This document shows, piece by piece, positions 809 to 59,032 of a DNA stretch of 64,000 nucleotides. The translations under genes and the position numbers were made by a program. This stretch comes from Ostreococcus lucimarinus (lineage: Eukaryota). The stretch is taken from NCBI GenBank assembly GCA_000092065.1, contig CP000601.1; one strand, given 5' to 3'. Below the pieces are notes generated by a model, which worked only from the letters and a program-made list of their open reading frames with translations, did no database searches and was not told the DNA's origin. The number at the start of each line of letters is the position of its first letter. The stretch's first letter is position 1.

Positions 809-1036
809 CTCACAGCGATAAATTTTTTAAAGTACTATCCGTCACCCCGAAACGACGAAAGTCACAGTGTTGTCGTGTCGCTTTTCCATCACGGACAATC
901 GGGTGTGGGAAAAAGTAAGGTGTGATGTCGACACATCTCTTCCTGCGGGTTTCGATCCCGCGGCTTCCAGATCTCTATCGGAGCAGCCGTCATATTCGAC
1001 GGAGACTTTTTCCTAACAGTCTGACACTCTACCAGC
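809..1036. repeat. 228-bp dispersed/direct repeat, copy 1 (about 98.7% identical to 6744-6971)
   Basis: Aligned by eye to copy 2 with 3 mismatches and no indels. Contains a GCGGG-TTTCGAT-CCCGC hairpin and the 14-mer TGTCGACACATCTC. Confidence 0.9.
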
Positions 1037-1666: not shown

Positions 1667-3100
1667 TTAGTGCGCGTGTGCGTGTGAGTCTCCGCCACCG
1701 CCACCGCCTGTGCAATGCTTGTGGTTGAGGAGCACGAGACTGATGGCAACAACGCCGACGATGAAGGTGAGAATGCTCGTCGCGCGAAGACGAGGTGAAG
1801 TGGCGCTCACTGATACTCGGGGCATGCACTCTGCGGCGGCGATTTGCAGATAGACTCCAGCACCGAAGGCGAGCAGCAGTCCATGCCAGAAGTCGTTGTT
1901 ATTTCCCGATCCAACACTAATGAGGACGCCAAGAATGACACTCAAGCCGGAAACGAAGTTTAAAGTCAGCGTCGGCAACGGCGCGAGATCGCCCTGGAAG
2001 GGGTCTACGAGCACCAAGTAGTCAGCAAGCTCTTGAGCGATTTCGTGATAGACGGTCGCGGCGGTGATCGACCATCCCATGGTACTGTCGCAGTTCAGAA
2101 AGCCGAAGCCAATGAAAATACCATCCACTAGGTTGTGCATGAAATCTCCAAGAATGATACCACTTCGAACGCGATACTTGTGTGAGTTACAAGTACAAGT
2201 ATCACAGTCATCTTGAGCGCCTTTGACTGCAAGTTCCGCATCGGTTGTCTTCGCTGTATTTCCAAGAGTTGGGAACACGACAGAGATACCAAAGTCGATG
2301 AAGTAGGCCATGAGAAAGCCGAAGATAGAAGCGGAAGCCCACCATGCGGTCTGCTCTGCCTCATCCGAGCCAGCAGGTTTGATTAAATGCGTGGCTTCGT
2401 AGAACATCAGATAAAACGCAGCCGAAAGAAGTGCGCCGGCGGCAAACGAGTTAATTGTGCAACTCACAGTTTCAGGGTACGCTTTCTGCTTCTTAGCGAT
2501 ACTCGGGATGAGAAAGACCACACCAGAAAGTGTGACGATATTGACGATAATTGCCGCCCCAATGGCGTTGGCCCACGGTTTTGATTTCGATTCGCTCACG
2601 GTGGATGCTTCGGGAAGTGAAGCTTTTGGCACCACGTCATCTCCGTGGAGGTCCTTGAGATAGTGCGCGTCGCGCTCGAACTCGGTGGGAACGTGCTCAG
2701 CGAAGATTGAGATCGCGTCGATGCCAGTCGTATTAATCTTAAACGGCGTCGTGTGCCAGGTGTTGTCAAATTCAAGGTTGACACACCCACTATCAGGTGT
2801 CAAAACACTATCTCGTATCTTAGCCGTCGTACAAGCTCCCCCGATTGCGGTATCACCGCTATCCTCGCGGGCTTCGAGCTCGTCGTGTCCGGCGGCGATT
2901 TCGTCGTAGATGACCATTTTCATGGTATCGGCGGCGTACTTATCGGCCACCTTTTGCGCCTGCCACACGTATTCATTCTCTGGCGTCTCAAAGATTCCAG
3001 CCCATTCGAATGCGTGCGCGCCGGACGCGTGCGCGCCGCGCTGCGCGAGCGCGCTCGCGACGATCGCGATGCCACCACCGAGCGCGCTCGCGCAGCGCAT
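1667..3100 (-). CDS. ZIP-family (ZRT/IRT-like) metal transporter with large N-terminal ectodomain and signal peptide
   Basis: Translation carries the ZIP signature HNLVDGIFIGFGF and a second metal-binding helix HEIAQELADY, with multiple TM helices. The putative signal peptide MRCASALGGGIAIVASALA starts at the ATG near 3100; the ORF extends to 3196. Confidence 0.8.
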   Translation of the reverse strand: MRCASALGGGIAIVASALAQRGAHASGAHAFEWAGIFETPENEYVWQAQKVADKYAADTMKMVIYDEIAAGHDELEAREDSGDTAIGGACTTAKIRDSVLTPDSGCVNLEFDNTWHTTPFKINTTGIDAISIFAEHVPTEFERDAHYLKDLHGDDVVPKASLPEASTVSESKSKPWANAIGAAIIVNIVTLSGVVFLIPSIAKKQKAYPETVSCTINSFAAGALLSAAFYLMFYEATHLIKPAGSDEAEQTAWWASASIFGFLMAYFIDFGISVVFPTLGNTAKTTDAELAVKGAQDDCDTCTCNSHKYRVRSGIILGDFMHNLVDGIFIGFGFLNCDSTMGWSITAATVYHEIAQELADYLVLVDPFQGDLAPLPTLTLNFVSGLSVILGVLISVGSGNNNDFWHGLLLAFGAGVYLQIAAAECMPRVSVSATSPRLRATSILTFIVGVVAISLVLLNHKHCTGGGGGGDSHAHAH

Positions 3101-3325
3101 CGTTCGCCCTCGTCGTCGCTCGACCGTCCTCGCACCGCGTGCGCGTTCGCGCGGCGGCATCGTCGTCTTCGTGTTCTTCGTGTTTTCGTTCGTCATCGTT
3201 TCCGTCGTCGTCGTCGTCTTCGCCGGCGTCGGTAAGTGCGGCTGCGCACAAACTAAAGCGGCATACGAACCGAACCGGCGCGATGGAGGGCGGTCGTTTA
3301 TAAGTCACGACTCGCGAACGACAAA

Positions 3326-3590
3326 ATGTCGACATCCGCCGCAGTGTCGACACATCTCGGTGGTACTTGGATATGTCGAAATATGTCGACATGTGCGTCG
3401 AGACGTTTTTCGTATATAGATGCATCACGGGGTTCAATGCGTACACGCGCGTGGGTAAATATGTCGACATGCGTGTCGACATGTTTACGACGCGCGTCGC
3501 GACGCGATCCGTGATGGGCTTCGCGGGGCGTCGCGTACGACGATCCTCGACACGTGCACGACGCGAATCGTCGACACGTGCACGACGCGC
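3326..3590. promoter_or_regulatory. Palindrome-rich divergent intergenic region between the ZIP and COG0523 genes
   Basis: Five TGTCGACA palindromes (3327-3334, 3345-3352, 3384-3391, 3461-3468, 3474-3481) plus a half-site at 3373-3380. TATATA at 3413-3418. A 19-bp tandem duplicate TCGACACGTGCACGACGCG (3547-3565 and 3569-3587), each copy containing CACGTG. Confidence 0.4.
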
Positions 3591-3658
3591 GCGCATCGCC
3601 GCACTTCGCGACGCCTCTTCGGCTCGTTCGCGCGCGGAGACGTCGATCGCCGTACATC

Positions 3659-5299
3659 ATGTCCACACCCGCCGCAATCGCCAATCATAATCGATTGCCG
3701 GTGACAACGCTGTGCGGGTTCCTCGGCGCTGGGAAGACGACAACTCTGAAACGCGTGCTCGAAGCTAAGCGAGACGCGAACGGAAAGTTTCGGTGTGCCG
3801 TCGTCGTGAACGACGTCGCGGAGTTGAACATCGACAAAAAATTAATCGATGATTCCGCTTTGCTGCAGAGCGACGAGGTGGTTGCCATGCAGAACGGATG
3901 CGTGTGCTGTTCGTTGAGCGGAGACTTTGTAAAACAAATCGGGGACATGGCCAAGAGTGGCAATTTTGACTACATGATCGTAGAGGCATCAGGAGTGTCG
4001 GAACCGGCGGAAATTGCGAAACTCTTCGCAAATTGTGAGGACGATCACGATCATGAAGCTGCGCACGTTGATGAGCATGAACATTTGAGCACACTGGCGC
4101 GGCTGGATACGTGCGTGACGGTCATCGCTGCAGGTGACTTTCTCGACATGATTGATTCTTTCAGGGCGTCAGCTGTGAACAGGCAGTCTTACTCTCAATT
4201 GTTGGCTGAACAGATAGAGTACGCGAATGTCGTCGTATTGAACAAGGTCGACACTGTCGATGACGAACAACTCGCCGAGATTAAAGCGCAGATACAACTT
4301 CTCAATTCACGTGCTGATATTCTTGAAGCTGTGAACGGCGCGATCGACGTTACGCGAATCGTCAATACAAAACTTTACAAAGAGAATGACTTTGCTGGTT
4401 TCATAACATGGGAACAAGAGATAGAAGCAACATCTGTGAAGTCATGCTGCGCCGGCGCTAGGGACAAAGGTGAGTCTCCATGCTGTAAGCGAGCTCGCAT
4501 GAGAGAAACAGCCTTAAGCGAGGTCACGCTTGCACCAAGTTCTTCCCAAACACGTCACGATAGTCGGTTCGGTATTACGTCTTTCATTTACCGAGCCAGA
4601 AGACCTTTTCATCCCAAACGGTTTTTAGGCTCATTTGTCGAGCGCTTCTTCAGCTCCCTCGAGGCCGATGACCGTGATGAAGAAAAAGATGAAGAGACAC
4701 CAAGTGTAGACTGGAGTGCAGTGAAAGATATTCGAGCGCGACAAGAAGCGATGAAACTCAAGCGCCGTAAAAGGGAAGGTGAAATTGGTGTGCTGCTACG
4801 TTCGAAGGGTGTAACGTGGCTCAGTGATGCCCACGACTTGATAATTGTTTTCAGTCAGGCTGGTAATATTTACTCTCTCGAAGGATCAAGCCGATGGACC
4901 GCGCTGAATAAAAATGCTTGGGTCGGCTCACAGGGGATAAAGCAAGAACTTCGTAAAGACTGGGAGGGGCCTTATGGTGATCGCCGACAAGAACTGGTGT
5001 TCATTGGCAAGGATCTTAAATACGATGAAATTCAATCAACGTTGGACTCTTGCCTCTTGACCGACGAAGAATTCGAAATGGGTTCTGATGGCTGGAGAGC
5101 AGTCATGGGTGATGTCTTTCTAGACGAAGACGACGAAGACGAAGACGACGAAGTCGATGACGAAGACGACGAAGAAATCGACGAAGATTTGGTCGACGAC
5201 GAGGAGATCGAAGAGGAGATCAGGCCGCAACCCACTTCAAAGTCGAAGGCAAAACCAAAGGCAAAGTCGGCGCCCTCTCAAAACGACGGCTTAGTCTGA
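3659..5299 (+). CDS. COG0523 / CobW-type G3E GTPase metallochaperone (zinc-chaperone-like), with His-rich insert and poly-acidic tail
   Basis: P-loop LCGFLGAGKTT (in VTTLCGFLGAGKTTTLKRVL). CxCC metal motif GCVCCSL. His-rich stretch CEDDHDHEAAHVDEHEH. C-terminal DEDDEDEDDEVDDEDDEE tail. Start taken at MSTPAAIANHN (3659); the ORF itself is open from 3554. Confidence 0.85.
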   Translation: MSTPAAIANHNRLPVTTLCGFLGAGKTTTLKRVLEAKRDANGKFRCAVVVNDVAELNIDKKLIDDSALLQSDEVVAMQNGCVCCSLSGDFVKQIGDMAKSGNFDYMIVEASGVSEPAEIAKLFANCEDDHDHEAAHVDEHEHLSTLARLDTCVTVIAAGDFLDMIDSFRASAVNRQSYSQLLAEQIEYANVVVLNKVDTVDDEQLAEIKAQIQLLNSRADILEAVNGAIDVTRIVNTKLYKENDFAGFITWEQEIEATSVKSCCAGARDKGESPCCKRARMRETALSEVTLAPSSSQTRHDSRFGITSFIYRARRPFHPKRFLGSFVERFFSSLEADDRDEEKDEETPSVDWSAVKDIRARQEAMKLKRRKREGEIGVLLRSKGVTWLSDAHDLIIVFSQAGNIYSLEGSSRWTALNKNAWVGSQGIKQELRKDWEGPYGDRRQELVFIGKDLKYDEIQSTLDSCLLTDEEFEMGSDGWRAVMGDVFLDEDDEDEDDEVDDEDDEEIDEDLVDDEEIEEEIRPQPTSKSKAKPKAKSAPSQNDGLV

Positions 5300-5399: not shown

Positions 5400-5696
5400 G
5401 TGAGCGCAAGTCATTTTTATGCACACAGTGACATCTTCATCGAATACCAGACGTGGTTGCCAGCGGCTGCGCGCGGTCAAGATAGCGCGACGAAGGTCGG
5501 CAATAAGCTCAAGGACTTCTTCAAGAAGGAAAAGGGCCACAGGGTCCCAATGGAAGAGGACCACCTGAGGCAAGGTAGAGACGAGAAGGGCGTCTATTGG
5601 GAAATTCACCGCGACGGGTGCTTCGAGTGGCTGAAGGACAATGGGTACACAGGGGAGACGGAGCTCGCGCCGGCGGTCGTCTGGTGCTCATACTAA
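5400..5696 (+). CDS. small hypothetical protein (98 aa)
   Basis: Open reading frame in the lower-GC island. The protein-like segment GVYWEIHRDGCFEWLKDNGYTGE has no recognisable family, so coding status is uncertain. Confidence 0.25.
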   Translation: MSASHFYAHSDIFIEYQTWLPAAARGQDSATKVGNKLKDFFKKEKGHRVPMEEDHLRQGRDEKGVYWEIHRDGCFEWLKDNGYTGETELAPAVVWCSY

Positions 5697-6130
5697 TTTT
5701 GTAATTCGTACATTTGCAATATGAAGACTCAACGAGACACCAAAAAGACCATGGTTTGGATCCTGACGAAATGACGAATGACGAACTGTTTTCATAAAGG
5801 TCCACACTGTTGCTTGTCATAGATCTAAAATAAAAATAAACATTAAAATATTTTAACATTTCGTCATTTTCATCATTGGTACACACAAAGTGTCACCGAA
5901 CGACGGGTTGACGAATTTGTGGACGACAAAACAAGTTCGTCATTTCGTCAGGTCTCGACGGATCACGAACGTCCAGGTGTGAAATCAGGCGGTTCGGTAT
6001 CTACATTCCGGACCTTGCAGCCCACGCAGCGATACGCGTACCTATGGTCTCTCGGATGTGACTGCAAACCGCAGGAGGAGGCACTTTTGGCAACAATATT
6101 TTCTTAGGGATAGATAGGTAACCAGGACAA

Positions 6131-6628
6131 ATGCCGTCGGGATGCGTGTACGAAATGTTTAGCGATAATGCGAAATGTAACAAAACGTACATCGGATCGA
6201 CGACGGGTTCGCTCAGAGCGCGCCTTGCCTCGCATAAATACGCACGACATCCAATCTTCACGTTTGGCGACGCGGACGTGAGAGTTCTCGAAAAGGACAT
6301 TCCAGCTGGAGAGCTCCATCAACGTAAAGGTGCCTACATGAGAGAGAAGCGTGACGGCTTATTCAACTCCCGAGCTGCTGGACGCAGCCAGAAACACGCG
6401 TGCCGCGAGAACGTGGACGAGAGTCCAGCCTACAGCAGAGCTCAATATACGCCGAAGCGGGACGGCGGCGATGGTAACTACAGACAACTCAATTATTACA
6501 AGCAGCACGCAAAAGGAATACTGCGCAAGACGTGCCTCAAGAATGCCCGAGCGCGCGGCACGCTGCCTTCGAAGCGCAGTCTCGACAAGTATCAATTTAC
6601 GGTAGATGAGTTACGCGGCTTGGCTTGA
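6131..6628 (+). CDS. GIY-YIG nuclease-domain protein (homing-endonuclease-like)
   Basis: N-terminus GCVYEMF-x9-KTYIGSTTGSLRARLASH fits the GIY-x(10-11)-YIG core with the following Arg and His/Glu. Lies in the lower-GC island, immediately upstream of repeat copy 2. Confidence 0.55.
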   Translation: MPSGCVYEMFSDNAKCNKTYIGSTTGSLRARLASHKYARHPIFTFGDADVRVLEKDIPAGELHQRKGAYMREKRDGLFNSRAAGRSQKHACRENVDESPAYSRAQYTPKRDGGDGNYRQLNYYKQHAKGILRKTCLKNARARGTLPSKRSLDKYQFTVDELRGLA

Positions 6629-6743
6629 CCACTTCACTCACACGATTGGTTCTGGAGAAATCTTACATGCGGTACATCAACGTCGATGTGCGGTTTTATC
6701 ATGTTGGGGTGCCCCAACTCAAAAAAAAAGTTTATTTTTATTA

Positions 6744-6971
6744 CTCATAGCGATAAATTTTTTAAAGTACTATCCGTCACCCCGAAACGACGAAAGTCAC
6801 AGTGTTGTCGTGTCGCTTTTCCATCACGGACAATCGGGTATGGGAAAAAGTAAGGTTTGATGTCGACACATCTCTTCCTGCGGGTTTCGATCCCGCGGCT
6901 TCCAGATCTCTATCGGAGCAGCCGTCATATTCGACGGAGACTTTTTCCTAACAGTCTGACACTCTACCAGC
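6744..6971. repeat. 228-bp direct repeat, copy 2
   Basis: Near-identical to 809-1036. Preceded by an A9 run and an AT-rich stretch (6700-6743). Confidence 0.9.
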
Positions 6972-7232
6972 TGAGTTAAGGAAGACTGTTTATGCATACG
7001 CACAACATCGCGGACATTCGACTGCCCATGCTCTTTATTTCGAGGCTTAACTCGGCGAGGTGGACGAATAATTGGTATTATACGTCGCTCGATGGTGGGT
7101 TTGCGACAGATCTTCGCGGCTTGACGCCGTCGATCCGCGATCGCGAATGTTACAGGTTGAGGGCTCGGGCGAGGACGTCGGTGGTTTTCGCGCGTTCGTT
7201 CGTTCGTCGTCACTCCGCGGTCGAATCCATCG

Positions 7233-10200
7233 GTGGATACGATGGATTCGACGCGGTGCGCGACGTGCCGGGCCGTCGTGCGCGGCGGCGCGGCGACGTG
7301 CGCGGAATGCGGGGCGCCGCAGGGCTACGATTCGGATTCGGACGCAACGATTCGCGTCGACGATGACGATGATGACGATGATTCTTCGCACTACGCCCGG
7401 GACGCCCGGGACTCGAGCGCTTCAGACGCCGACTCGAGCACTTCCGCCTCGTCCACGACTCGGCGTCGGCGGGAAGTCGAGTCGCGCGAGCGGGAGATGG
7501 AGGAATCGCCCGAGGCGTTGAAATTGTTGTACATGCTGAGTTTGTACACCGACGCGTCTCAGAAACAGTCGAAGTCGAAGTCTGCGGTTTCCAACAACAA
7601 CAACAACAAACGTTCTCCCTGGATTCGCGAGCTGCCGCTCCTGGTGCTCGTGTACGAGGGCATCGTGCGAAACGCGGTGTTCGATTACGATTACGCGCCA
7701 AAATCAGAAAAGATATTTGGAGCGTGTCCGAGGTATTTGAACGTCTCGGAAGAGGGACGAGACGATTTAGACGATTTGCGTGAGCTTGGTTTCATCACGG
7801 CGCTCAAGGTGACGAGCGAGACGTACGATCACTCGACGTTGTTGAAGATTTCCAAGAAGGGGAGCGAATTCTTGCAGAGGATGACGGCCTCGGGACGGTT
7901 CACGAGCGCGATGCGCCAGTCGGTAGATTCGTTGGTGCACGAAGCTGGTCACCTCCTCGAGGTGCGGTACGACCGCGAGTCCTCGGATTTTTTCCTCACC
8001 GTCCCCTCGATCGGGGTCCGCATCCGCTCCACCATCACGGACGTCGAAGACGTGCCGTACGTCTCGTCTCCGTACATCCCTCCGCACATGCTGAGCTCCG
8101 ATGCGTTCACACCGAACGCGTTGAACGGGCACAAAAAGGCAAAACGCGTGCTCGGCGGCGCCGTTCAAAGTAGTCGCGATATTCGCGACCCGCGCCTGAG
8201 TGAAAGTATCTTGCTCGACTCGGTGAAAATCATCGTCACCGAATACGTGCCGATGGGATCGAACGAAATGGTTTCTTTCTGTAGAAAACTCGGCACGGGA
8301 GACCGCGTCGCGGGCGGTATGTTCACCGCGGAAGCGAGCGCGACGCAGGACGAATTCAACATGGTGGTCGGGATCAACGCCGACAATAAAACCGAGCTAA
8401 AAGTCCTCGACGTCGACGAAACGCGATTCGTAAACGTCGAGGCAGACTTGCTCGCCACCGGGGCGCCCAAGAGTAACTTGGTGCAGCAGCAAATCGAGGT
8501 TTTCGGCATCAACTTTCGGGAAAACGGCGCCATCACTTACGGCATCGTCGTCAACGGCATCGCCGATCGAATTCGAAACGATATCAGCGTCGATTTACTC
8601 GCGCGCTTACTTTCCGACGTCCACGAAGACACGAGCTCGCTGGTGGGAAATTTATTTTCCGAGCGTCAGCGCTCCATGTTGAACATCACATACAAGGGCG
8701 AGCCGGACAATCGCGACAAGTTTACGTGCATCATCGCCGAGCGCGCGACGCCAAAACTGAAAGCCGCGGCGTACATGGATGGTGAAGATAACGAAAACGA
8801 GCTCAAGCAAGTCATCGGCGCGACGTTTTACGCGTACGACCTGAACGAACAAGAAGTCATCGTCTTTGGTTCACGCGGTGTCGTCGTCTTTGGTCCGCGC
8901 ACCGAACGTCATCACAAGCTTCTCGCGACATATTCAGCGTTCCAAGCTCGCTCGTTGTTCATCAAAAGTGTCTTCAGCAGTTGTTTCGCGCTGAACGACG
9001 AGTTGAAGAAGACGCGAGCGTTGATTGAAACCTATCAGATCGATCCGACGAACGTAACGCGCATTCGTTCGCGCCTCGCCGATCACACGACGACGGTGAC
9101 GATCTTGAGCGCCACTCAGCAGTTCGTGCTCGAGTCGCTCGAAAACGTCGACACGTCTCGTGAAAAGTTGAGCGCGGATATGAGCGACGGCGCGTCGCAA
9201 GTGTTGTACGACTTGTTTCAGTTGGAACCGTCGTGGAAACGCTTGCAAAGACGCGCCGTTGACTTGGAAAAAGTCATCGCGGCGTGCGTCAACGATCTCG
9301 AGTCTCTGCGAGAAATGAACGCCGTCATCGGCTCACGAAGAAAGCTCCGCATCAACGAGGCGATAGAAGGGACGACGAAAAACTTAGAGGATGCTTTCCG
9401 AGCGCAGGCGCGCAACAGCACCACGCTCGAGGTGACGCAAGTGATTTTGTCGGGGACGCTCGCGTTTGACATTCTCGATCGATTCACGGGGCAATACCTT
9501 TCGTTCACCGAGATTCGATGGGCCGTCGAAGCGGTGCAGCCGTACATAGTGAATGTTCCCGCGGTTTGGTTCATCTTGAACATGCTCGCGTGGTCGGCGT
9601 TGGGCGGTGGAATTGTTTATTTGATGCGCTACTTGGCCTACATGCATTGCAGCGTGGAGACGAAAAAGCTCACACTCAATAAACCCATTCATTTGTCGCG
9701 ATGGCGGCGATTCATCGCGACGCGCAACGTGGAGTCGACGGCTTTTAAGGAGGAGAACAACCGTCGCGTGGTGAAATACGGCTGGACCGAGCCCATCGAC
9801 GTCAAAAAGTGGAAAGGAACGCCCCCGAAGATTAACGTCACCATCGACGAGCGATACGGTTTCATCTTGCAAGCGATGATCATCATCAATAAGCGCACGT
9901 GTACGCTCTCCGGCGATGCGGTGTGGCGTCAATTTTGGAGCGATGTTTTCGTCGCTCGCAACGTCCACGATCAAAGTCGAGAGCTGTTTGACACCGACAC
10001 CGGCGACCGTTTGCAAACGGCCGAATATTCGTCAGAAGAAGAAGACGAGACTCGCCGCGACGTCACGGCCAAGATCATCGGCATCGACAACCGAAAGTCC
10101 ACGTTAAAGTGGCGCGATGGCAGGCAAATCCTCGCGCAAGACGACACCGACGACGACATCGATTCGGACGAGGAGGCGATCGCGAAGACGGGCGATTTGA

Positions 10201-49650: not shown

Positions 49651-52600
49651 GCGCGTGCCGTTCAGGGACGAATACGAGCGACACAGGGCGTCGCGACCGG
49701 ACGAACGCGCGCCGCGAGGGGCGAGTTGGCGCATCCATCGAGTGCGAGGATGGCGCTTCGACCTGCGCGCGCTGTACGAGGAGGTGAAAAGACGCGGTGG
49801 CGCGGACGCGATCGATGGAAATCAAGGCTGGCGCGAGGTCGCGGAGGCGATCGGGGCGCACGGACGCGGATGCGCGGCGGGACACGCGGCGAGAGCGCTG
49901 CACGGGGCGTGGCTGGAGGCGTTCGCGCGCGACGCCAAGCGAAGAGAAGACGCGGTGAAGAGCGCGCAGTTCGACGCGGTGAAGGGAGAGATCGAACAAG
50001 ATGACGCGCTGGCGATCGATGCGCTGTGTGGGCTCGAATTTGGGGCGTCGGGCGCGCCCGAACGGCGAGTCAAGGTGGAAAATGTGCGTAATTCGTGCCA
50101 TATCTTCTTCGCGCGGGACCGGGATGACGGCGAATCGCACGCGTTCGCGGCGCGTGCGACGCGCGCGCGCGATGATGGGCGTCGCGATGACGTGCGACTG
50201 ACTTTTACGGCGCGTGTTTTCGCGACGCAGGGCCTCGATCTCGTCGCCTCGCAGCTCGCGGACGCGCCCGAGGGCGACGCCGACTGCGACGTGTGCGGCG
50301 CGAGCGGGAACGAAGACGCGATGATCCTGTGCGATGGGTGCGATCGAGGGTGCGTATACGACAATGCCACGCGAGAACGCGCGCGTGAAAATTATCTCGA
50401 TCGTTCGGACGCGCGTTCGGGGAGAGAGAGCGCTCGCGCGGCGCGCGAGGGCGCGGCGAACGCGCGCGTGGGCGACGGTTAGACGTGGGGTTTAGAGGCG
50501 CGCGGGGGAGAAGGAGCCGCGAAGGAGCGACGAGACTGACGAATGATGCGCGCGTAGGTCACATATGTACTGCTTAACGCCGAAGATGACTGAAGTGCCG
50601 AGTGGAGAGTGGTTTTGTGGACGATGCGAAGAGATTGACGCGGAGGTGGAGCGATTGAGCGCGGATGAAGGGACGCAGTTTACGCTCGGCGATTTCAACG
50701 AGGCGTGCATAGAATTTGATACGGCGTTCTTTGGCGAGGACGCCAAGCGAACTGGGATCGATATGCAGGTGATTGAGGAGTGTTTCTGGCGAATGGTTGA
50801 AGATGCGAGCTCGGTGGATGATGTTTGCGAGGTCAAATGCGGCACGGCGATTGACACGACAAAGTACGGAAGCGGGTTCCCGAGACACGGCGAAGCGCTT
50901 CAGGTAAAGATTGACGGCGTGAGCCCGGAATCTATCAAGCGCTGGTCAGAGTCGAAATGGAATCTCAACAACGTCGCGCGCGCGAGTGGGGAAAAGTCGT
51001 CGCTACTGGGCGCGTTGAAGGATGACGTGGCGGGCGTGACGACGCCATTCTTAGAAGTCGGAAGCACGTTTAGTTCCACGACTTGGCGTCGAGAAGAGCA
51101 TAACATGTACAGTATCACTTACAATCACTGGGGTGCCGCGAAACTGTGGTACTGCGTGCCGGCGAGTGCAGCGGACAAGTTGGAAGAATGCTTCCAGAAG
51201 GTGATGCCCGACGTCTACGAGGCGCACGTCAACGATTTGGGAAGCGTCTTTACGATGCTCTCGCCGAGCTTCTTGATGAGCGCGGGAGTGCCCGTGCACA
51301 CGTTGGAGCAATTCCCAGGAGAATACGTGGTGACGTATCCCGGGGCGTACTACGCGTCGTTCAACTGTGGATTGAACTGCACGGAGAGCGTCAACTTTGT
51401 GCCCGCTGACTGGCTCCCAGAGGGCTCGGCGAGCGTGGAGAGAAACCGATCGTACGCCAAGCGTTCATTGTTTAGTCACGACGAGTTGGTTTGCAGAGTA
51501 GCAAACAATCCTAGTTCGAGCATAGCGCCGCACTTGTGGCCCGAGATTGCGCGCTTGTACGCTGAAGAGGCAAACGGTCGCGCCGAGCTTTTCGCGTCTG
51601 GCGTGACGCGCAGCGCGCAAATGACGTCAGCAGACGACGACGACGACGACGATGGCTGCGAAAAGCCTCGTAAAGTACGATCTAGGTTTGACGATGCATC
51701 GAACTCTGGATCCGATGAGTGCGTTGTTTGTCGACACATTTTGTACTCGTCTGGCGTCGGGTGCTCGTGCGACGAGACGCGCAAGGCGTGCTTGCGACAC
51801 GTCAACGACTTGTGCAAATGTGCGATGTCGAAGAAGACGATGTTTTACAGAGAAACAGTGGCTGATTTAGAAAGTCTGGTGAAGAAGACGGAGAAGGCGC
51901 TTTCTCAGAAGGAACTAGCCAGCTTAAAATCCAAGCACAGCGACTTGGACTCAGTCACAGTGAACAAGAATCTCGTCAAGAAGGCTCAGGCTTGGGTGAA
52001 ACGAGTGGGCGAAGAGCTCGTCAAACCACCTTTGCCGCCGCTGGACAAGATGAGAAATTTACTCGCTGCGGGTGAAGAGTTTATTTGGGGTGGTGCTGAT
52101 ATGAAGGCGGCTCGAGAAGCGTACACTCGCGTGACGAACGCCGTCGCGTGGCAGACGAGTCTTGTGGCGCTGAAGCAAAGGCTTGGATCCAGTGCTGGTG
52201 CCGAGGCCGCGCACGATGACGCTGGTGAAGCGCGATTGAGATTGAACAGACTAAAAGAGCTCCTTGACAACCCACCGGTACCGATGCCTAAGGCTGATAC
52301 TCAACCTTTCCGCGATTTGCTCGCGGCGGGCTTGAAATTGGAGGAACGCATCAAGGCGGCTCTCGCCGAGGTACCGAATCCATCTCCTCGCGCTTGTACG
52401 ACGCTTCAAACTGAAGCGAATAAGTTTGGTGTGGAAGTCCCTTCATATAAAAAGCTGAAGGACGTCATCGTTAGAGCAGGCGCGTGGTCCACGAAGGTGC
52501 GCGGCGCGCTTCCAGGACGACGACAACTCCCGCCGCGCGAGGAACTAGCGAATGCTCGAGAGATCGAGGCGTTATACGAAGAGGCGCATGGATTACCCGT

Positions 52601-55600
52601 TCAGCAGAGCGAACTCTTGACTTTGCGCAAATCTTTAGAAGAGTTGAATTTTTGGCGCGCAAAGTCTGAGTCGCTGTTCGTCGCCAAGGTTGACGTGGAA
52701 GAAGCCGAGGCGCTTCTCAAGGAGGGCATGGCGTTGTCAACAAAACTCGACGAGGTCGACAGACTAGCCGATCAAATCAAAGCTGTCAAAGTGTGGGCCG
52801 ATCATGCTCGAGCGAGTGATTATCCGGGAGCAAGAGTGACGGATTTGCACATGCTTCTCGTCGAGGGTGAAAAGTTTAGCGTGCGAGTGGACGAAGTCGA
52901 GTGGTTGCGAAACCGTATCGTCGTCCGGGAGCTGGCAGAGAAATTGAAGGACATGGTTTCATCGAAGAAATATCCGCTCGCCGAAGTCGAAGCGGCCGTG
53001 CGGGCGGGTAACGAGTTCCTCGACTCCGAAGATAAAGAGGTTGCCCCAGATGAAGAAGCGCTGCTGGCGCAGTGCGAGAGCCACATCAACGCGGCGAAGA
53101 AGTGGAACGAGCGCGCGGCGGTGATGCTCAAATCTCTCGATAGTAAGGACCGACCGTCACTCGAAGACGCCGCGTCGCTCATCCGCGAAGGAAGCTCGAT
53201 TCCAATCTTTCTGAATGGATTCGACGTGCTTTCAGAAGCGGTCAATGTAGCCAAGTCTTGGTTGGATCGTGCACAACCTTGTTTGAAGGGAAAGCAGCTC
53301 ACTCGTCGCGGTGTGTCAAATCCGATTCCGCCGCTTTCCGAGGCGCAAGAGCTCATGAAAGAGTCTTCGAACTTGAAATTGTTTGTCAAGGAAGTTGAAG
53401 CTTTGGAAGAACGCGTCGAAGCCGCAGAAGAGTGGGACGTGGACGCGAAGGACGCCATCGAGCGCTGGCGAGAAGACGGCGCCGAGGTGACGTTGACCGA
53501 GCTTGAACTTTCGCACGAAGACTTTGGATTAGAATTACCAGCCATGGAGACAGTTCGCATTCGTTTAAAGTCGCTCAAGTGGGAAGAACGCGTCGCTAAG
53601 ATCATTGCACCCAAGGCGAAGCTCGTCGAGGACACCGTTTTGGACGAGCTCAGGGAAGAAATCGACGTGCTTCAAGACTTGAAAGAGGATCTTGTCGCTG
53701 AAATCATGAAACGGTACACGATTGTGGACGAATGGCGCAAGAAAGCGGATCGTTTGCTCGATCCTCCTCTCCTTGAAGACGGTCGATTGGCTCCGAGTGC
53801 ATCACCGGAGGAAATAGACGCCCTCATCGCCGAAGGCAAGGCACTTCCCGCTGACGTCTCGAAGGTAGAAGACCTCGAGGCGTCGTTGGCGGATCACGCA
53901 CAGTGGGTCGACACCGTTCGTAAGTGCTTGAACAGTGTCGCTGAAGGTCGATCTCGCCCTTCGATTGACGAATTATACGATCTTCTAGCGGAGGTGGAAG
54001 ATTTGACCTTCAAGTGCTCAGAGAGACAAGCGCTCACAAATGCGTGCAACGCCGCCACGGCGTGGACGGAGAGGCTCAACGCGTTGCTCTGGGCAAACGA
54101 TCAGGGTGAAGTCAAACAAGAAAAAACGCTTATCGAAATGTTGAGCAATGTTCTTGATTCCATCAAAGCTGGTGTGGAAGACATCACCGGGACTGGCGAA
54201 CCGCCGGAGACGGAGGAGGGTTAGTTCTGCCTTTGTCGACAAGCTGGAGGAATTCAAATGGTTGGATGTGATGATTGCGGTGACTGGTATCACTTAAAAT
54301 GTATCAATGTGACGCCTACTATGGCAAAGACGATGCACAATTACATCTGTCCGCCATGCATCGCGAAGAGTGGCAAGGCGAGCGCACTCTCGTTGGATAC
54401 GTATCGCTCGGTGCATCGCACCAATCGCCCAAACGTCATGCTTTTGCGAGAACTCCTCGGTGAAGCGCAGCGATTTCCTGGAGAAGTGCCAGAAGAAGCC
54501 GTGTTGAATCAAGTCATCAATACTCACGACGCGTGGCGATTGGAAGTACGAAAGACTTTGCATAGAAAGAGTATGAAGGAAGCACACGACAACGCCATCA
54601 GTCAAGCTTCGAAGATTGCCCAAGAAGCAGCGATGAGAGAATCTGAGGAACGCACACGACGAATCGCCGAAGCGTCGCTCGCGGCGACTGCAGAGAACCC
54701 CAATCCTCCAGCTTCTCTCACGCCATTACAGCAAGTCATGCTGATGGGTCAAGCTGTCACGTTCGCCGCAACGCAGCGCACGCACGCGTTGAACATTTCG
54801 CCGTGTTCGCAGGAGATTTCAGATGTCGTCACAAAGCAGCTCGGGCAACTTCAACAGCTCGCCATGCAACTCGCGATGTGCCAAGCTCAAATTCACATGG
54901 CTCCAGTTCGGTCTAGGCCCCACATCCTCCACGTCTTGATGATGCAGCAACAGCATCTAAAGATGACAAACGAGCACGAGGAAGAGCTGGCAAATGTTGG
55001 CGCTAGCAACTGGCTCATGGAAGCGACTCTGCAACTATCTGGAATGTCTGGCATGATGCCGCCGCCGACGGCGCAAGACACCGGCAAAGAACCTTCAACA
55101 TCCACGGGTCATGGTAGTCCAAGCGATATGTCTGCTCAGTTGAAGACGAACGAACCGATGATGGTTCCGCAGCAGTTCATGTTGCAACCGGCCATGCCAT
55201 CGCTTGTCGGCGACGCGTCTGGAATGCCCAAGCAAGAGATGGATTACACGTATGACATTCCTCGAAAAGATAATGTCGATCCAGCGCTGCAAGTGTACGC
55301 GGGCATGAAGGGTGCTCTGGCGATGGAGCTGGAACCTGTTGAGGAGACGCTCGCGTTGATGCGCGAAGTGTGCGGTCCGGCGTGGAGAGAACAAGCCACG
55401 CGGCTCATGACTGGTGCGCCGTTCCCGAGGTTGATCAAGCTTCACGAGCTCAAGGAATCTGCCATGGCTGCTGGTCTTTGCCCTGGTGCCGGCATTGATC
55501 CTTTGGCCGATCGCGCGCACGCGTTGGAGGTTGCTGGACAAATCTGGCTCGAACGCGCCGCCGCCGTCGTGCAAGACAAAACGATTCCTATCGAGGCGGC

Positions 55601-56087
55601 GCAGTTGCTGCTTCAAGAGGGTCGATCTTTGCCTTTATACTTGAAGGAGGAGCTCGAGGAGTTGGGAGAGCGATGCGAACTGTATTGCGTTTGCCGAAGC
55701 GCGTACGACGCTCTCAGGCCGATGATTTGCTGCGATCGATGCGATGGTTGGTTTCATTACGAGTGCATCGGCATGCAGTCGCCGGCGCCGGGCGAGGAAG
55801 ACGAAAACGCCGAAAACGTCAAGTTTGCCTGCCCAGAGTGCTGCGCGGCGCAAGGTATTCCGTACGTTCCGTTCCGTCCAGCGCCGAAGGACACGGACAA
55901 AGCGCCGGAGCGAGCCGCGCCTCCGCCGGCTGAAGAAGCTCCGGAGCCGCCAAAGACGGAAGAAGAAGCGAAGCCGCCCGCTAAACCAGAACCGGAAGTC
56001 GCGGACAACAAGAAGAAACGAAAAACGGTGGAGCCGACTCCGCCTGCTAATAAAAGTACCTCTAGTCGCAGCAGAAGACGAAAGTAG
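49651..56087 (+). CDS. KDM5/JARID1-like JmjC lysine demethylase (ARID-PHD-JmjC-C5HC2-PLU1-PHD-PHD); segments 49651..50349, 50558..54221 and 54225..56087 with one intron and one unresolved in-frame TAG
   Basis: ARID (FDLRALYEEVKRRGG...AARALHGAWLEAF). PHD1 is split by an intron (CDVCGASGNEDAMILCDGCDRG | SHMYCLTPKMTEVPSGEWFCGRC). JmjC core (HTTWRREEHNMYSITYNHWGAAKLWY...EQFPGEYVVTYPGAYYASFNCGLNCTESVNF). C5HC2 zinc finger (CVVCRHILYSSGVGCSCDE). Two C-terminal PHD fingers. TAG 54222-54224 lies in frame between the PLU1 region and PHD2. Confidence 0.7.
50350..50557 (+). other. spliceosomal intron (208 nt) splitting the first PHD finger of the KDM5-like gene
   Basis: GTGCGT donor right after ...CDGCDRG. 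ACTGACG at 50535-50541. GCGCGTAG acceptor. Splicing reconstitutes a perfect C4HC3 PHD finger. Confidence 0.8.
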
Positions 56088-56135: not shown

Positions 56136-57362
56136 TCAACCGTCCAGGTGCTCGTCCCATCCCAGGTCTCGTTTCGGCTTGCGCCTACCGACCAACTTGG
56201 CCGCGTCCAGTTCGGTCAACAATTCAATTTCGTCGAGTGTTTCCTCGCTCACATCGATGTCGTCCGTCACCGCGAGCTTTTGACCCTTTCTATGACGCTC
56301 GACGAGTTCTTCGAGATATCCTTGCTTTGCGTAGTTCGGTATCAACCTAGACATGTACACGCCGCGCAAAATACGTTTTTCTTCCTCAGTCAAATCGCCG
56401 TGAAACCCTCGGCGGTTGATCCGGTCCGTCACGGCGTGCGACATCACGAGCGCGGCGGCGACGGAAATGTTCAAAGACTCGGTGAAGCCAAACATCGGAA
56501 TGTACACGGCGCCATCCCGCAGCGCTCGCGCCTCGTCCGAAACCCCCTCGCGCTCGTTCCCAAACACCACCGCCGTGGGCACGGTCCAATCGTAATGCGA
56601 CAGCGGCTGCGCGCCGTCAAACTCAGTCGTAAGAACGCGGTATCCTTTCGCCTTCGCGACTCTGAGCGCGCGTTCCGACGTCTCAAACTGCTCCACGTGT
56701 TGCCACTTCAGCGCCCCTCCCGACGTCCTCCCGCTCGCCTTGAACGACAGCCCCTTCGAGCTCACGATCGACGCGCACCCGATCCCCAGCGCCTCCGTCG
56801 TCCGACACACCGCCAAGATATTGCCGACGTCGTAGACGCCCTCTAGAATCGGCAGCAACGAAAAACTTCTATGCTCCAAAACGTTTTCCAGCCGCATGCG
56901 TCGCTCTTCCCCGACCATCGCCGTCGCGAGCGCCACCATCGTCTCCGTCTCGCACGTCGCCCTCGCGAACGCGAATCCATCGCCGTACGGGAATCTTTCC
57001 CTCTCGTCCTCGTTCGCGCGCGTCCCCAAATCTTCCCGCCGCGCCCGCACCAGCCCGTGAAACTCCAGCGCGTCCGGCGCCCACGCGCGCTGCCTTCGGT
57101 GCGCCTTCGCGCTCTTCGTCGCCACCGCGCCCGTGCGCGCCACCGCGCGCGTCGGTCGCGGCGTCGTGCGCTTCACGACGACGTCGTGCGGGCCGGCGTG
57201 CGCGCGCGACCCCGGTTCCGACACCGATTCCGATTCCGCCGCGTCGTCGTCGCGCGCGCGTCGCGTCGCCGGTCGAGCGACGCGCGCGGCGCGCTCGCGA
57301 GCGTCGCGTCGATTCGCGTCGATTCGCGATCCCGCGCCCGCGATCGCGCGCGTCGACGCCAT
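56136..57362 (-). CDS. SpoU/TrmH-family RNA 2'-O-methyltransferase
   Basis: SpoU blocks VLEHRSFSLLPILEGVYDVGNILAVCRTTEALGI, AVVFGNEREGVSDEA and YIPMFGFTESLNISVAAALVMSH. The N-terminal Arg-rich part of the ORF is likely non-coding or a presequence. Confidence 0.65.
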   Translation of the reverse strand: MASTRAIAGAGSRIDANRRDARERAARVARPATRRARDDDAAESESVSEPGSRAHAGPHDVVVKRTTPRPTRAVARTGAVATKSAKAHRRQRAWAPDALEFHGLVRARREDLGTRANEDERERFPYGDGFAFARATCETETMVALATAMVGEERRMRLENVLEHRSFSLLPILEGVYDVGNILAVCRTTEALGIGCASIVSSKGLSFKASGRTSGGALKWQHVEQFETSERALRVAKAKGYRVLTTEFDGAQPLSHYDWTVPTAVVFGNEREGVSDEARALRDGAVYIPMFGFTESLNISVAAALVMSHAVTDRINRRGFHGDLTEEEKRILRGVYMSRLIPNYAKQGYLEELVERHRKGQKLAVTDDIDVSEETLDEIELLTELDAAKLVGRRKPKRDLGWDEHLDG

Positions 57363-57520
57363 TCGAATCGCCGCGCGACGCGAAGTGTCGACATCGCGTC
57401 GCGCGGCGATTCGAATCGCGTCGCGCTCGAACGGCGTCGCGTCCTCGCGACGCGCGCGCGATGACGCGCGAACGTCGCGCGCGCGCCGCGCGGTCGCGGG
57501 GCGCGCGCGCGCGCGAGACG

Positions 57521-59032
57521 ATGGCGGCGGTGACGCTCGGGACGTTTTTGGTGTTGGGACGCGCGGGCGCGTTTCGCGGCGCGAGCGCGCGGCGCGCGCC
57601 GCTACAGGCGATGGACGCGGGCGCGGGAAGCGCGGGAGGGACGGCGTCGCGGCCGGCGCGGCGATGGATGACGCACCTGCTGCGCGATCACCCGGAGATG
57701 CGATGCACGCAGATTCCGAGCAAGCCGGTGATCGTCGGCGGCGACGGCGGCGGCGCGGGAAAGCCGCTGATGGAATTCCTGAGGGATTCGAACGCGGTGA
57801 CGTTCGGACCGACGGATAAGGATGGGAACAGCGACGCGGAGCGGTTGAGCGGGTTGGATGACATGGTGGTGGACGTCATGGCGTTTTCGAAGCGGTTGCT
57901 GTACGAACCGGATGATTTGCCGATGGATTTGCAAGCGGATTTAGCGAAACATTTGTGCGATATGTTTGCGAGACAGGAGAAGTGGTTGCACCCGGGATTG
58001 ACGATGAATGGGATACAACACGATCAAGAGGTCGGGCGGTGGGGATGGAAGGATCCGTTGGCGATGTATTTGGTGCCGATTTGGAGAGACGTGTACGGGC
58101 CGTCGGTGACGTACGTGCACTTGGTGCGGGATCCGCGGACGCTGCCGCTCGGGAATTTGCACGACAAGGAGCGGGATTTACAAAAGGCGTACTTTGGTCA
58201 AGAGCGATGGGAGCAGTTGACGGCAAAATTTGAATCCGAGTGGGCGCATCTCTCCCAGCACCAGTCGATGACGAGCGTGAAGAAGGACGACGTGATTGAT
58301 TTATTGCGCACGACGGCGTACTGGACGTCCATCAACTTTGAGCTCGGGGCGCTCATCAAGGGCCCGCTCAAGAACTACGCCACGGTGCTCCGGGCGGAGG
58401 ATTTGGTGCAACCGGACATGGATCACTTCCGACGCGACGCCACCGGGAAAAAACCGGAAAAGTACCAAGCCGCGCAAAAAGTCATGCAAGAGCTCACGAC
58501 GCTCCTCAAGCTCCCGGCGAAACTTTCCAACACGCTGGGAAGCCACGAACACATGAAGCAAAACCTCCGACGGTTCACGATCCACCGCGAAAAGTTCGTC
58601 TACCGCACCGACTCCCCCATCATCGAAGTCCAAACCCGCATCGCCGAGAAGACGTTGGAACTCTTCGGCTACTCCGCCGACGCCGCGCTCTTCGTCTCGC
58701 GGCACCCGTCGTCGAGCGAGCCCCACGGCCATCGTCTCACCCCCGAGGGCGAGTACATGCACGAGGAGCACAGGTATACTCCCGACGATTTCGAGCCCAC
58801 GATCGAACCCGCGTCGGAGGGCGATCTTCCCGGCATCACCAACCACGTCCTCGGCGCTCAGCTCAAGTACACCGACCGCGTCGAGCTCGAGCGCGCCAAG
58901 ACGCGCGCGCCCGACACGGAGCAATCTCGCGCCGTCGAGGCCCAGCTCATGGAGGCTAAGAAGAAGACCTTTTTGCTCGAAACCACCAAAATCGACGGCA
59001 AGTCTCTCAAGGACGTCATCGACCATCTGTGA
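57521..59032 (+). CDS. hypothetical secreted/membrane protein, sulfotransferase-like fold suspected
   Basis: Signal-peptide-like MAAVTLGTFLVLGRAGA. Long protein-like ORF with WGWKDPLAMYLVPIW and HLVRDPR reminiscent of P-loop sulfotransferase 5'-PSB/3'-PB regions. Assignment is weak. Confidence 0.35.
   Translation: MAAVTLGTFLVLGRAGAFRGASARRAPLQAMDAGAGSAGGTASRPARRWMTHLLRDHPEMRCTQIPSKPVIVGGDGGGAGKPLMEFLRDSNAVTFGPTDKDGNSDAERLSGLDDMVVDVMAFSKRLLYEPDDLPMDLQADLAKHLCDMFARQEKWLHPGLTMNGIQHDQEVGRWGWKDPLAMYLVPIWRDVYGPSVTYVHLVRDPRTLPLGNLHDKERDLQKAYFGQERWEQLTAKFESEWAHLSQHQSMTSVKKDDVIDLLRTTAYWTSINFELGALIKGPLKNYATVLRAEDLVQPDMDHFRRDATGKKPEKYQAAQKVMQELTTLLKLPAKLSNTLGSHEHMKQNLRRFTIHREKFVYRTDSPIIEVQTRIAEKTLELFGYSADAALFVSRHPSSSEPHGHRLTPEGEYMHEEHRYTPDDFEPTIEPASEGDLPGITNHVLGAQLKYTDRVELERAKTRAPDTEQSRAVEAQLMEAKKKTFLLETTKIDGKSLKDVIDHL

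Follow-up and report, generated by a model that had tools for sequence, protein, structure and literature searches.

The ZIP/COG0523 gene pair and its spacer

We analyzed a 64,000-nucleotide stretch of the Ostreococcus lucimarinus genome (GenBank assembly GCA_000092065.1, contig CP000601.1), here referred to as the window, in which a gene for a ZIP-family metal importer and a gene for a COG0523 (CobW/YjiA-type) GTPase lie head to head and are separated by a spacer rich in an 8-bp palindrome, TGTCGACA. Compared letter by letter, the palindrome with its flanking bases matches land plants' zinc deficiency response element (ZDRE), a 10-bp imperfect palindrome with the consensus RTGTCGACAY (PMC5476651, PMC9643250). 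A first-pass annotation of the window had proposed that the spacer is the shared control region of a zinc-regulon unit. This proposal gains support from the conservation of the palindromes, from their recurrence at other ZIP and COG0523 genes and from the co-induction of the corresponding cluster in Ostreococcus tauri, all described below; the identity of the palindrome with the plant ZDRE had been missed.

The importer gene (positions 1667 to 3196, minus strand) encodes a 509-aa protein that matches Pfam Zip (PF02535; E = 1.2e-21) across residues 212 to 487, and its orthologs in other Ostreococcus lineages, including ostta06g02310 of O. tauri, are 78 to 92% identical to it. An N-terminal domain of ~170 aa precedes the Zip domain, in line with the unusually large ectodomain reported at first pass; this ectodomain, of beta-sandwich fold, covers ~155 aa (2570 to 3034, minus strand). 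A PDB sequence search with the ZIP protein gave no match. An alternative start at 3103 would give a signal-peptide-like N terminus (MRCASALGGG). The GTPase gene (3659 to 5299, plus strand; 546 aa) encodes both the G3E GTPase domain (Pfam cobW, E = 5e-41) and the CobW_C domain (E = 1e-18), and the solved structure closest to its product is that of Escherichia coli YjiA (E = 7.6e-21). The Zip, cobW and CobW_C matches on opposite strands confirm the divergent pair, and the CobW features listed in the earlier annotation can all be read in the translation: a CxCC motif, here C81-V-C-C84, a His-rich insert at residues 126 to 142 (CEDDHDHEAAHVDEHEH; residues 130 to 142 are HDHEAAHVDEHEH) and a poly-acidic C-terminal tail. 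The translation also contains a GxxGxGKT P-loop.

The divergent intergenic control region common to the two genes (3197 to 3658, no strand assigned) is 462 bp long, or 555 bp when measured from the alternative ZIP start, as expected from an earlier estimate of about 460 to 560 bp. Copies of TGTCGACA begin at 3327, 3345, 3384, 3462 and 3474, which places five within 155 bp. The whole window contains 10 copies, compared with 1.42 on average and never more than 5 in 100 dinucleotide shuffles, and the densest cluster per 160 nt in 300 first-order Markov simulations contained 2. The five spacer palindromes seen at first pass are thus a cluster far beyond chance. All five fit the 10-mer RTGTCGACAY, which occurs 8 times in the window against an expectation of 0.54.

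Sites 1 (ATGTCGACAT, 3326 to 3335) and 2 (GTGTCGACAC, 3344 to 3353) form a ZIP-proximal pair. Site 3 (ATGTCGACAT) lies at 3383 to 3392, site 4 (ATGTCGACAT) at 3461 to 3470 inside a 78-nt repeat unit (3379 to 3408 and 3457 to 3486), and site 5 (GTGTCGACAT) at 3473 to 3482. The further elements that had been described from the sequence are also present: a half-site (ATGTCGAAAT, 3373 to 3382), a TATATA element (3414 to 3419) and a tandem duplicate (two copies of TCGACACGTGCACGACGCG, 3543 to 3589) with CACGTG boxes at 3551 to 3556 and 3575 to 3580. The units of the duplicate (3543 to 3565 and 3567 to 3589) are 23 nt long and 96% identical, with a 24-nt period. On the ZIP side of the pair, at 3302 to 3313, lies AAGTCACGACTC, a degenerate copy of a second palindrome, GAGTCnnGACTC, which is an inverted repeat of the TGACTC core.

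Marine metagenome contigs match the window region at 99.5 to 99.9%, and among these population contigs we found two natural alleles of the spacer. Allele A, that of the window, has five ZDREs, and allele B has two. Allele B keeps sites 1 and 2, and 3375 to 3626 is replaced by ~320 nt of unrelated, AT-rich sequence without a ZDRE, the end of which matches the promoter of a mobile-element COG0523 gene (contigs L002, 111 to 423, and L004, 5233 to 5557). Sites 3, 4 and 5 and the tandem duplicate are accordingly found in allele A only, and the TATATA element is not conserved beyond it.

Distribution of the spacer palindrome

The window COG0523 protein had no ortholog between 97% and 53% identity; orthologs in other Mamiellales were expected but not found. 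In the absence of an intermediate COG0523 ortholog, we made the promoter comparison through ZIP, tracing its orthologs to their contigs and comparing the spacers upstream of them. All of the Ostreococcus lineages examined, O. tauri and at least six more, have one to five copies of RTGTCGACAY upstream of the orthologous ZIP gene. Loci L007, L008, L009 and L010 have a ZDRE pair with the 18-nt spacing of window sites 1 and 2, and the pair is invariant in seven aligned loci (from four lineages plus the window). The ZIP spacer of O. tauri (GCA_000214015.2, chromosome 6) contains three ZDREs with a 12-nt period, an O. tauri-like lineage contains five, and L028 contains two that are 14 nt apart. A further 13 metagenomic loci extend over the spacer, and each of them has one or two ZDREs. 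In seven loci taken together, 2,479 nt of spacer upstream of ZIP contain 21 ZDREs (8.5 per kb), compared with 8 in 135.5 kb (0.059 per kb) elsewhere and a Markov expectation of ~0.008 per kb. We considered whether RTGTCGACAY might be a general Ostreococcus promoter motif and rejected this, as it is ~140-fold rarer outside ZIP, bZIP and COG0523 contexts.

In the spacer alignment, the invariant blocks are the two ZDREs, together with scattered invariant positions in a GAGTCnnGAC palindrome. This second element, GAGTC(nn)GACTC (GAGTCnnGACTC), in which the GCN4-type core TGACTC is repeated in inverted orientation, is found in nearly every lineage, 20 to 35 nt from the ZDRE pair in the direction of ZIP (window 3302 to 3313, L007 5786, L008 5641, L010 1813, L011 5873 and others). 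Alleles L004 and L006 have it in perfect form.

The ZDRE also occurs in contexts that are independent of the orthologous ZIP promoter. In a distant lineage (L014), a ZIP gene of another subfamily, which is nonorthologous and only 18% identical to the window ZIP at the protein level, adjoins an ortholog of the bZIP gene described below (P0438/P0471). The sole two copies of TGTCGACA in this 12.5-kb locus lie in identical GACGATGTCGACATCCATCG units, 270 to 400 nt upstream of that ZIP gene. The P0438/P0471 contigs have 63% GC, and their lineage is possibly another Mamiellales genus. For the closest homolog of the window COG0523 protein, from Cymbomonas tetramitiformis (53% identity), a ZDRE lies 259 nt upstream of the start codon and is the only one in 11.6 kb; for the mobile-element copy of the window COG0523 gene, the corresponding distance is 253 nt, and no second ZDRE occurs in 17.5 kb. 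In L007, in L010 and in all eight L010-type loci among the 13 mentioned above, an extra ZDRE is present at the 5′ end of a 435-aa COG0523 gene. The presence of the motif at a nonorthologous ZIP gene and at the Cymbomonas COG0523 gene indicates that it follows gene function rather than one inherited promoter.

In Arabidopsis, bZIP19 and bZIP23 bind the ZDRE upstream of ZIP1/3/4/5/9/10/12, IRT3 and NAS2/4 (PMC9643250, PMC5476651). This system of group F bZIP (F-bZIP) proteins and ZDREs is stated to have arisen in the first land plants, and green algae, with O. lucimarinus named among them, have been reported to be without it (PMC5476651, PMC9643250); no F-bZIP was found in Chlamydomonas (Castro 2017, PMC5476651). 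Our full-text literature search found no report of a ZDRE or an F-bZIP in algae. The best-supported model for our data is a variant of the F-bZIP/ZDRE-type system in a group from which it has been published as absent.

The neighboring bZIP gene and the metal signal

In O. tauri and in every lineage except that of the window, the gene divergent from ZIP encodes a 190- to 260-aa bZIP_2-domain protein. The next gene after it codes for a COG0523 protein of 403 to 435 aa in three lineages (O. tauri itself, the O. tauri-like lineage and the L007/L010 type) and for an ankyrin-repeat protein in L008. The bZIP-linked COG0523 protein is 30% identical to the window COG0523. CobW had been taken at first pass as the partner of ZIP in the unit; it does adjoin the ZDRE spacer, but it is a recent mobile-element arrival, and bZIP is the usual divergent partner. 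Coding sequence lengths and annotations identify the O. tauri genes as ostta06g02310 (ZIP), ostta06g02300 (bZIP) and ostta06g02290 (CobW-like) (PMC4855317, supplement). That study annotates them as "iron transport (putative)," ATF4/5-like and cobalamin related, respectively, and draws no link to zinc or the ZDRE (PMC4855317).

Judged by its residues, the Ostreococcus bZIP shares the F-type DNA-contact signature N..AV..YR. Its basic region, NRAAVRRYRERKR, has the signature of the F-bZIP proteins (AtbZIP19, NREAVRKYREKKK), and the form NR(A/V)AVRRYRER(K/R)R is present in all nine Ostreococcus bZIP sequences, with N-x2-A-V-x2-Y-R in place of the usual N-x2-S-A-x2-S-R. A second conserved part is the C-terminal FLExYFTHGDACPC (H-x3-C-x-C). 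In the distant P0438/P0471 proteins, the basic region is NRAAVRRYRHRQR and the C terminus is FLVHDDGCPCPGHHSHHG, and the counterpart of FTHGDACPC in P0438 is HDDGCPCPGHHSHHG. Using an AtbZIP19 query verified as an exact database entry, we aligned the Ostreococcus bZIP profile to AtbZIP19 with an hhalign probability of 96% (E = 2.9e-9); over the 78 aligned columns, which continue past the zipper, the identity is 38%. BLASTP of the O. tauri bZIP gave 35% identity over 79 aa (E = 2e-11). When the Ostreococcus basic region was scored against those published for all 46 sugar-beet bZIP proteins, plus AtbZIP19, the top three, at 42 to 48, were of the N..AV..YR type, although the group F class of the two beet proteins among them was not confirmed, and the next score was 33.

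We propose that the palindromes are working cis-elements of the ZDRE type and that a dimeric bZIP activator drives ZIP and COG0523 under zinc shortage, and we assign this a probability of roughly 0.6. The activator, an ortholog of ostta06g02300, would bind the RTGTCGACAY sites when the cell is short of zinc and would drive divergent transcription of the ZIP importer, for metal uptake, and of the COG0523 GTPase, for zinc delivery or sparing. In the ancestral Ostreococcus layout, the ZDREs would have stood between divergent ZIP and bZIP genes, with the 403- to 435-aa COG0523 gene behind bZIP, in a compact and probably autoregulated unit. The C-terminal FLExYFTHGDACPC may act as the sensor. Because the bZIP side has been replaced in the window lineage, the regulator would have to act in trans there. 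Taken as a whole, the locus is most likely a metal-limitation module under ZDRE/bZIP control that responds to zinc.

Several observations weigh against this proposal. The N-terminal Cys/His sensor motif that defines F-bZIP proteins (CxHTHTCNPxGPE...HTHTCxHxHT) is absent from all Ostreococcus bZIP sequences. With the Ostreococcus profile, ATF4-like proteins of metazoans (invertebrates) score 40 to 48 bits and AtbZIP19 scores 32 bits; when 1.84 billion representatives were searched exhaustively with the profile, the matches outside Ostreococcus were mostly ATF4-like animal proteins, and the best PDB match is ATF4. As ATF4 scores above AtbZIP19, orthology to group F is unproven, and the two may have converged on the same site. 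The bZIP gene is absent from the 64-kb window, and no ortholog could be assigned to the window lineage. Allele B exists in nature without the three COG0523-proximal ZDREs, and a ZIP homolog with 50% identity (L018 to L020) has no ZDRE. We sought a zinc transcriptome in the literature and found none, and the sole transcriptome shows induction in long-term low iron. The conserved GAGTCnnGACTC palindrome, finally, could be the real bZIP target.

The designation of the Ostreococcus bZIP as a firm F-bZIP ortholog was rejected on account of the missing sensor motif and the higher ATF4 scores. The metazoan ATF4/ATF5 and C/EBP (bZIP_2) proteins give the best overall scores to it, and the RYR signature is common to it and ATF4. 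ATF4 differs, however, in having A-A/T at the position of A-V in the algal and F-bZIP proteins, its sites (CRE/CARE) differ from TGTCGACA, and it has no link to metal transporters.

This resemblance bears on the question of which element the bZIP protein binds, for which the candidate targets, set side by side, are RTGTCGACAY and GAGTCATGACTC. If the ZDREs were regulatory but bound by some other factor, the bZIP could bind the GAGTCnnGACTC element or act elsewhere; two conserved palindromes do share one spacer, the bZIP resembles ATF4/GCN4-type factors overall, and five ZDREs persist in the window lineage, where no bZIP gene adjoins them. Such a division of labor is nevertheless improbable in our estimation, given that the contact residues match those of the F-bZIP proteins, which are the sole factors known for this non-ACGT palindrome, and that in the distant lineage the bZIP gene is linked to a ZDRE-bearing ZIP gene without a perfect GAGTCnnGACTC at the sites.

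Expression data are available for O. tauri, in which cells were kept for one week at 54 nM or 1,080 nM Fe-EDTA before transcriptome sequencing (PMC4855317). The O. tauri cluster is co-regulated by metal status: in the same low-iron samples, the log fold change was 3.5 for COG0523 (~11-fold), 2.0 for ZIP (~4-fold) and 0.4 for bZIP (PMC4855317, supplements), and ZIP was almost silent in replete medium (PMC4855317). The same study describes strong zinc-iron cross-talk and mass induction of zinc proteins under low iron (PMC4855317).

Co-induction in low iron keeps alive an iron-responsive account with the same architecture and the same bZIP, in which the signal is limitation for iron or divalent metals in general, ZIP is an Fe(II) importer and the whole is an iron regulon. 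We consider this unlikely, though it deserves more weight than the other alternatives. In addition to the induction of ZIP, bZIP and COG0523 at low Fe-EDTA, ZIP proteins often transport Fe, the O. tauri authors filed ZIP under iron uptake, and allele A has two CACGTG boxes. These boxes, however, are not conserved in other lineages, and the palindrome itself is identical to the plant zinc element. Proteins of the COG0523 family that combine a CxCC motif with a His-rich stretch have been reported to be tied to zinc homeostasis across kingdoms. The cross-talk seen in O. tauri, together with the induction of zinc proteins, means that a secondary zinc shortage could explain the low-iron induction. 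Zinc, rather than iron, would then be the signal to which the ZDRE/bZIP module responds.

A protein with two F-type basic regions (GNRAAVRRYREKKKA and GNREAVRRYREKKKA) was encountered in a eukaryote on a 62%-GC contig (P0440, 762 aa; L016, 7001 to 9289). Its N-terminal Cys/His-rich stretch (HTVTCGHLAHGHACHEV, CVHAHHTCGE and ECWHVHRI) resembles the plant zinc-sensor motif, and no ZDRE is present in its 10-kb locus.

Origin of the window COG0523 gene and relation to other zinc systems

Near the ends of 584- to 611-kb contigs (L021 to L023) lies a variant of the window COG0523 gene that is 98.7% identical to it in nucleotide sequence. Its neighbors there are a GIY-YIG open reading frame (ORF) and a gene for a 733-aa Prim-Pol/DUF5906 primase-helicase (L021, 14520 to 16721), an arrangement that points to a virus-like or self-replicating mobile element carrying the metal chaperone as cargo. 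Directly downstream of the window COG0523 gene, a 98-aa ORF (5400 to 5696, plus strand) is 93% identical to residues 644 to 733, the last 90 aa, of the L021 protein and is thus a C-terminal remnant of the primase-helicase; its exact sequence was found on 257 contigs. It is followed by an inserted segment (5758 to 6830, plus strand) with a GIY-YIG-like ORF of 165 aa (6131 to 6628). The segment is polymorphic in natural populations, being present in the window and L004 and absent from L001, L002, L003 and L005. The GIY-YIG ORF product is identical to several multicopy proteins of O. lucimarinus CCE9901, in a cluster of 898 members, and other window proteins share 90%-identity clusters with CCE9901 proteins.

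A tRNA-Asn(GUU) gene with a 42-nt intron (6872 to 6985, minus strand; Rfam tRNA, 49 bits), missed by ARAGORN, lies beyond this segment, and a 5′-truncated duplicate of it with its 3′ flank is found at 809 to 1036 (minus strand). The resulting 228-nt direct repeat (809 to 1036 and 6744 to 6971; 99% identical) flanks the ZIP/COG0523 block on both sides, as a pair of att sites would, and in both copies a ZDRE-like ATGTCGACAC lies 3 nt past the 3′ end of the tRNA (6860 to 6869 and 925 to 934). No integrase was found alongside the tRNA-Asn direct repeats, and a PHROGs search with the small ORFs gave no match.

In a sister lineage whose ZIP is 91.6% identical to that of the window, the bZIP gene is still found beside ZIP, so the swap is recent. 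On this comparison of gene orders, a mobile-element COG0523 gene has replaced the bZIP side in the window lineage: the ancestral bZIP/COG0523 side was exchanged for another COG0523 gene that traveled with a Prim-Pol/helicase/GIY-YIG element and brought its own ZDREs.

The involvement of a mobile element also raises the question of whether the palindromes are structural repeats of recombination or mobile elements, such as ends or target sites, with no role in transcription. The spacer is polymorphic, metagenome contigs break at the sites, a ZDRE-like site is present in the direct repeats that bracket the block, and the COG0523 gene rides on a mobile element. We nonetheless judge this explanation very improbable, since the ZIP-proximal pair with its fixed spacing is conserved where no mobile element is nearby, as in O. 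tauri, and the motif recurs before unrelated ZIP and COG0523 genes in other genera.

One contig (L006; JGI 3300048107) combines both spacer alleles. An LHC gene and a Lys/Ala-rich gene are joined to the right half of allele A, and these are followed by COG0523, the 98-aa ORF, the tRNA′ repeat, ZIP, allele B and the start of COG0523. Such a contig could have arisen either by chimeric assembly or by tandem duplication through the 141-nt repeat, together with a second locus.

The algal module resembles the land-plant F-bZIP-ZDRE regulon (Assuncao 2010; Castro 2017) in its identical 10-bp RTGTCGACAY element, in multiple copies before ZIP importer genes, and in a candidate bZIP with the same N..AV..YR basic-region signature and a similarity to AtbZIP19 that continues past the zipper. 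It differs in that the algal bZIP lacks the N-terminal Cys/His sensor motif and has the conserved C-terminal HGDACPC instead, in that the genes for regulator, transporter and COG0523 protein are physically clustered in Ostreococcus and share a promoter, and in that the second target in the alga is COG0523 rather than NAS.

The module can also be compared with zinc regulation outside the land plants. As in bacterial Zur regulons (znuABC with yciC/zigA), a palindromic operator lies in a divergent promoter, a zinc importer is paired with a COG0523 protein, and the regulator is often close by; Zur, in contrast, belongs to the Fur family, acts as a repressor and binds DNA in the presence of zinc, whereas the candidate in the alga is a eukaryotic bZIP, presumably an activator, with no sequence relationship to it. 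Yeast Zap1 is likewise an activator under zinc deficiency that acts through repeated palindromes lying upstream of ZIP importer genes (ZRT1) and, in autoregulation, of the gene for Zap1 itself, but it is a C2H2 zinc-finger protein of unrelated sequence, and its ZRE is ACCTTNAAGGT. In the zinc-deficiency response of Chlamydomonas reinhardtii, ZIP (ZRT) and COG0523 (ZCP) genes are responders as well; to our knowledge, no cis-element or regulator has been assigned to that response, and its genes have not been described as a head-to-head pair with a regulator. For green algae and for the eukaryotic phytoplankton of the sea, we know of neither a transcription factor nor a cis-element that responds to zinc. 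In parts of the ocean, growth is limited or co-limited by zinc.

A zinc circuit thought to be an invention of land plants is probably much older. More tentatively, at somewhat below even odds, we can envisage a broader scenario in which ZDRE and bZIP form an ancestral green-plant zinc switch already present in marine prasinophytes, with an importer-regulator-chaperone cassette in Ostreococcus and sensing by C-terminal His/Cys residues; mobile Prim-Pol/helicase elements would spread ZDRE-controlled COG0523 genes as adaptive cargo for zinc-poor seawater. The locus and its relatives supply a precise cis-element, a candidate regulator (ostta06g02300), probable targets (ostta06g02310 ZIP and ostta06g02290 COG0523) and natural promoter alleles with two or five sites, all in an alga amenable to genetic work. 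This makes it possible to test directly how zinc sensing in plants originated and how phytoplankton regulate their zinc uptake, and zinc-stress marker genes for metatranscriptomes may follow.

Some further features were seen near the module in other lineages and elsewhere in the window. A second ZIP gene with EF-hands and a GATA factor gene lie near the module in the O. tauri-like locus (L012, 9036 to 10796), and a ferric-reductase-like gene and an SBP_bac_5 gene lie near it in L009 (8899 to 13092), with one more ZDRE at 8731. We looked for JmjC synteny between the window and L012 and did not find it. Within the window, a lone full ZDRE (GTGTCGACAT, 57385 to 57394), without an evident metal link, lies in the spacer between a SpoU/TrmL-type methyltransferase gene (56136 to 57362, minus strand) and an unannotated 523-aa ORF (57461 to 59032, plus strand). 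Two adjacent ORFs on the same strand (50565 to 54224 and 54258 to 56087) together resemble one KDM5/JARID-type demethylase, with JmjC, C5HC2 and PLU-1 domains in the first and PLU-1 and PHD domains in the second. Either a stop codon or a short intron separates the two, and a copy of TGTCGACA without the flanking R and Y, at 54234, lies inside the 33-nt gap between them.

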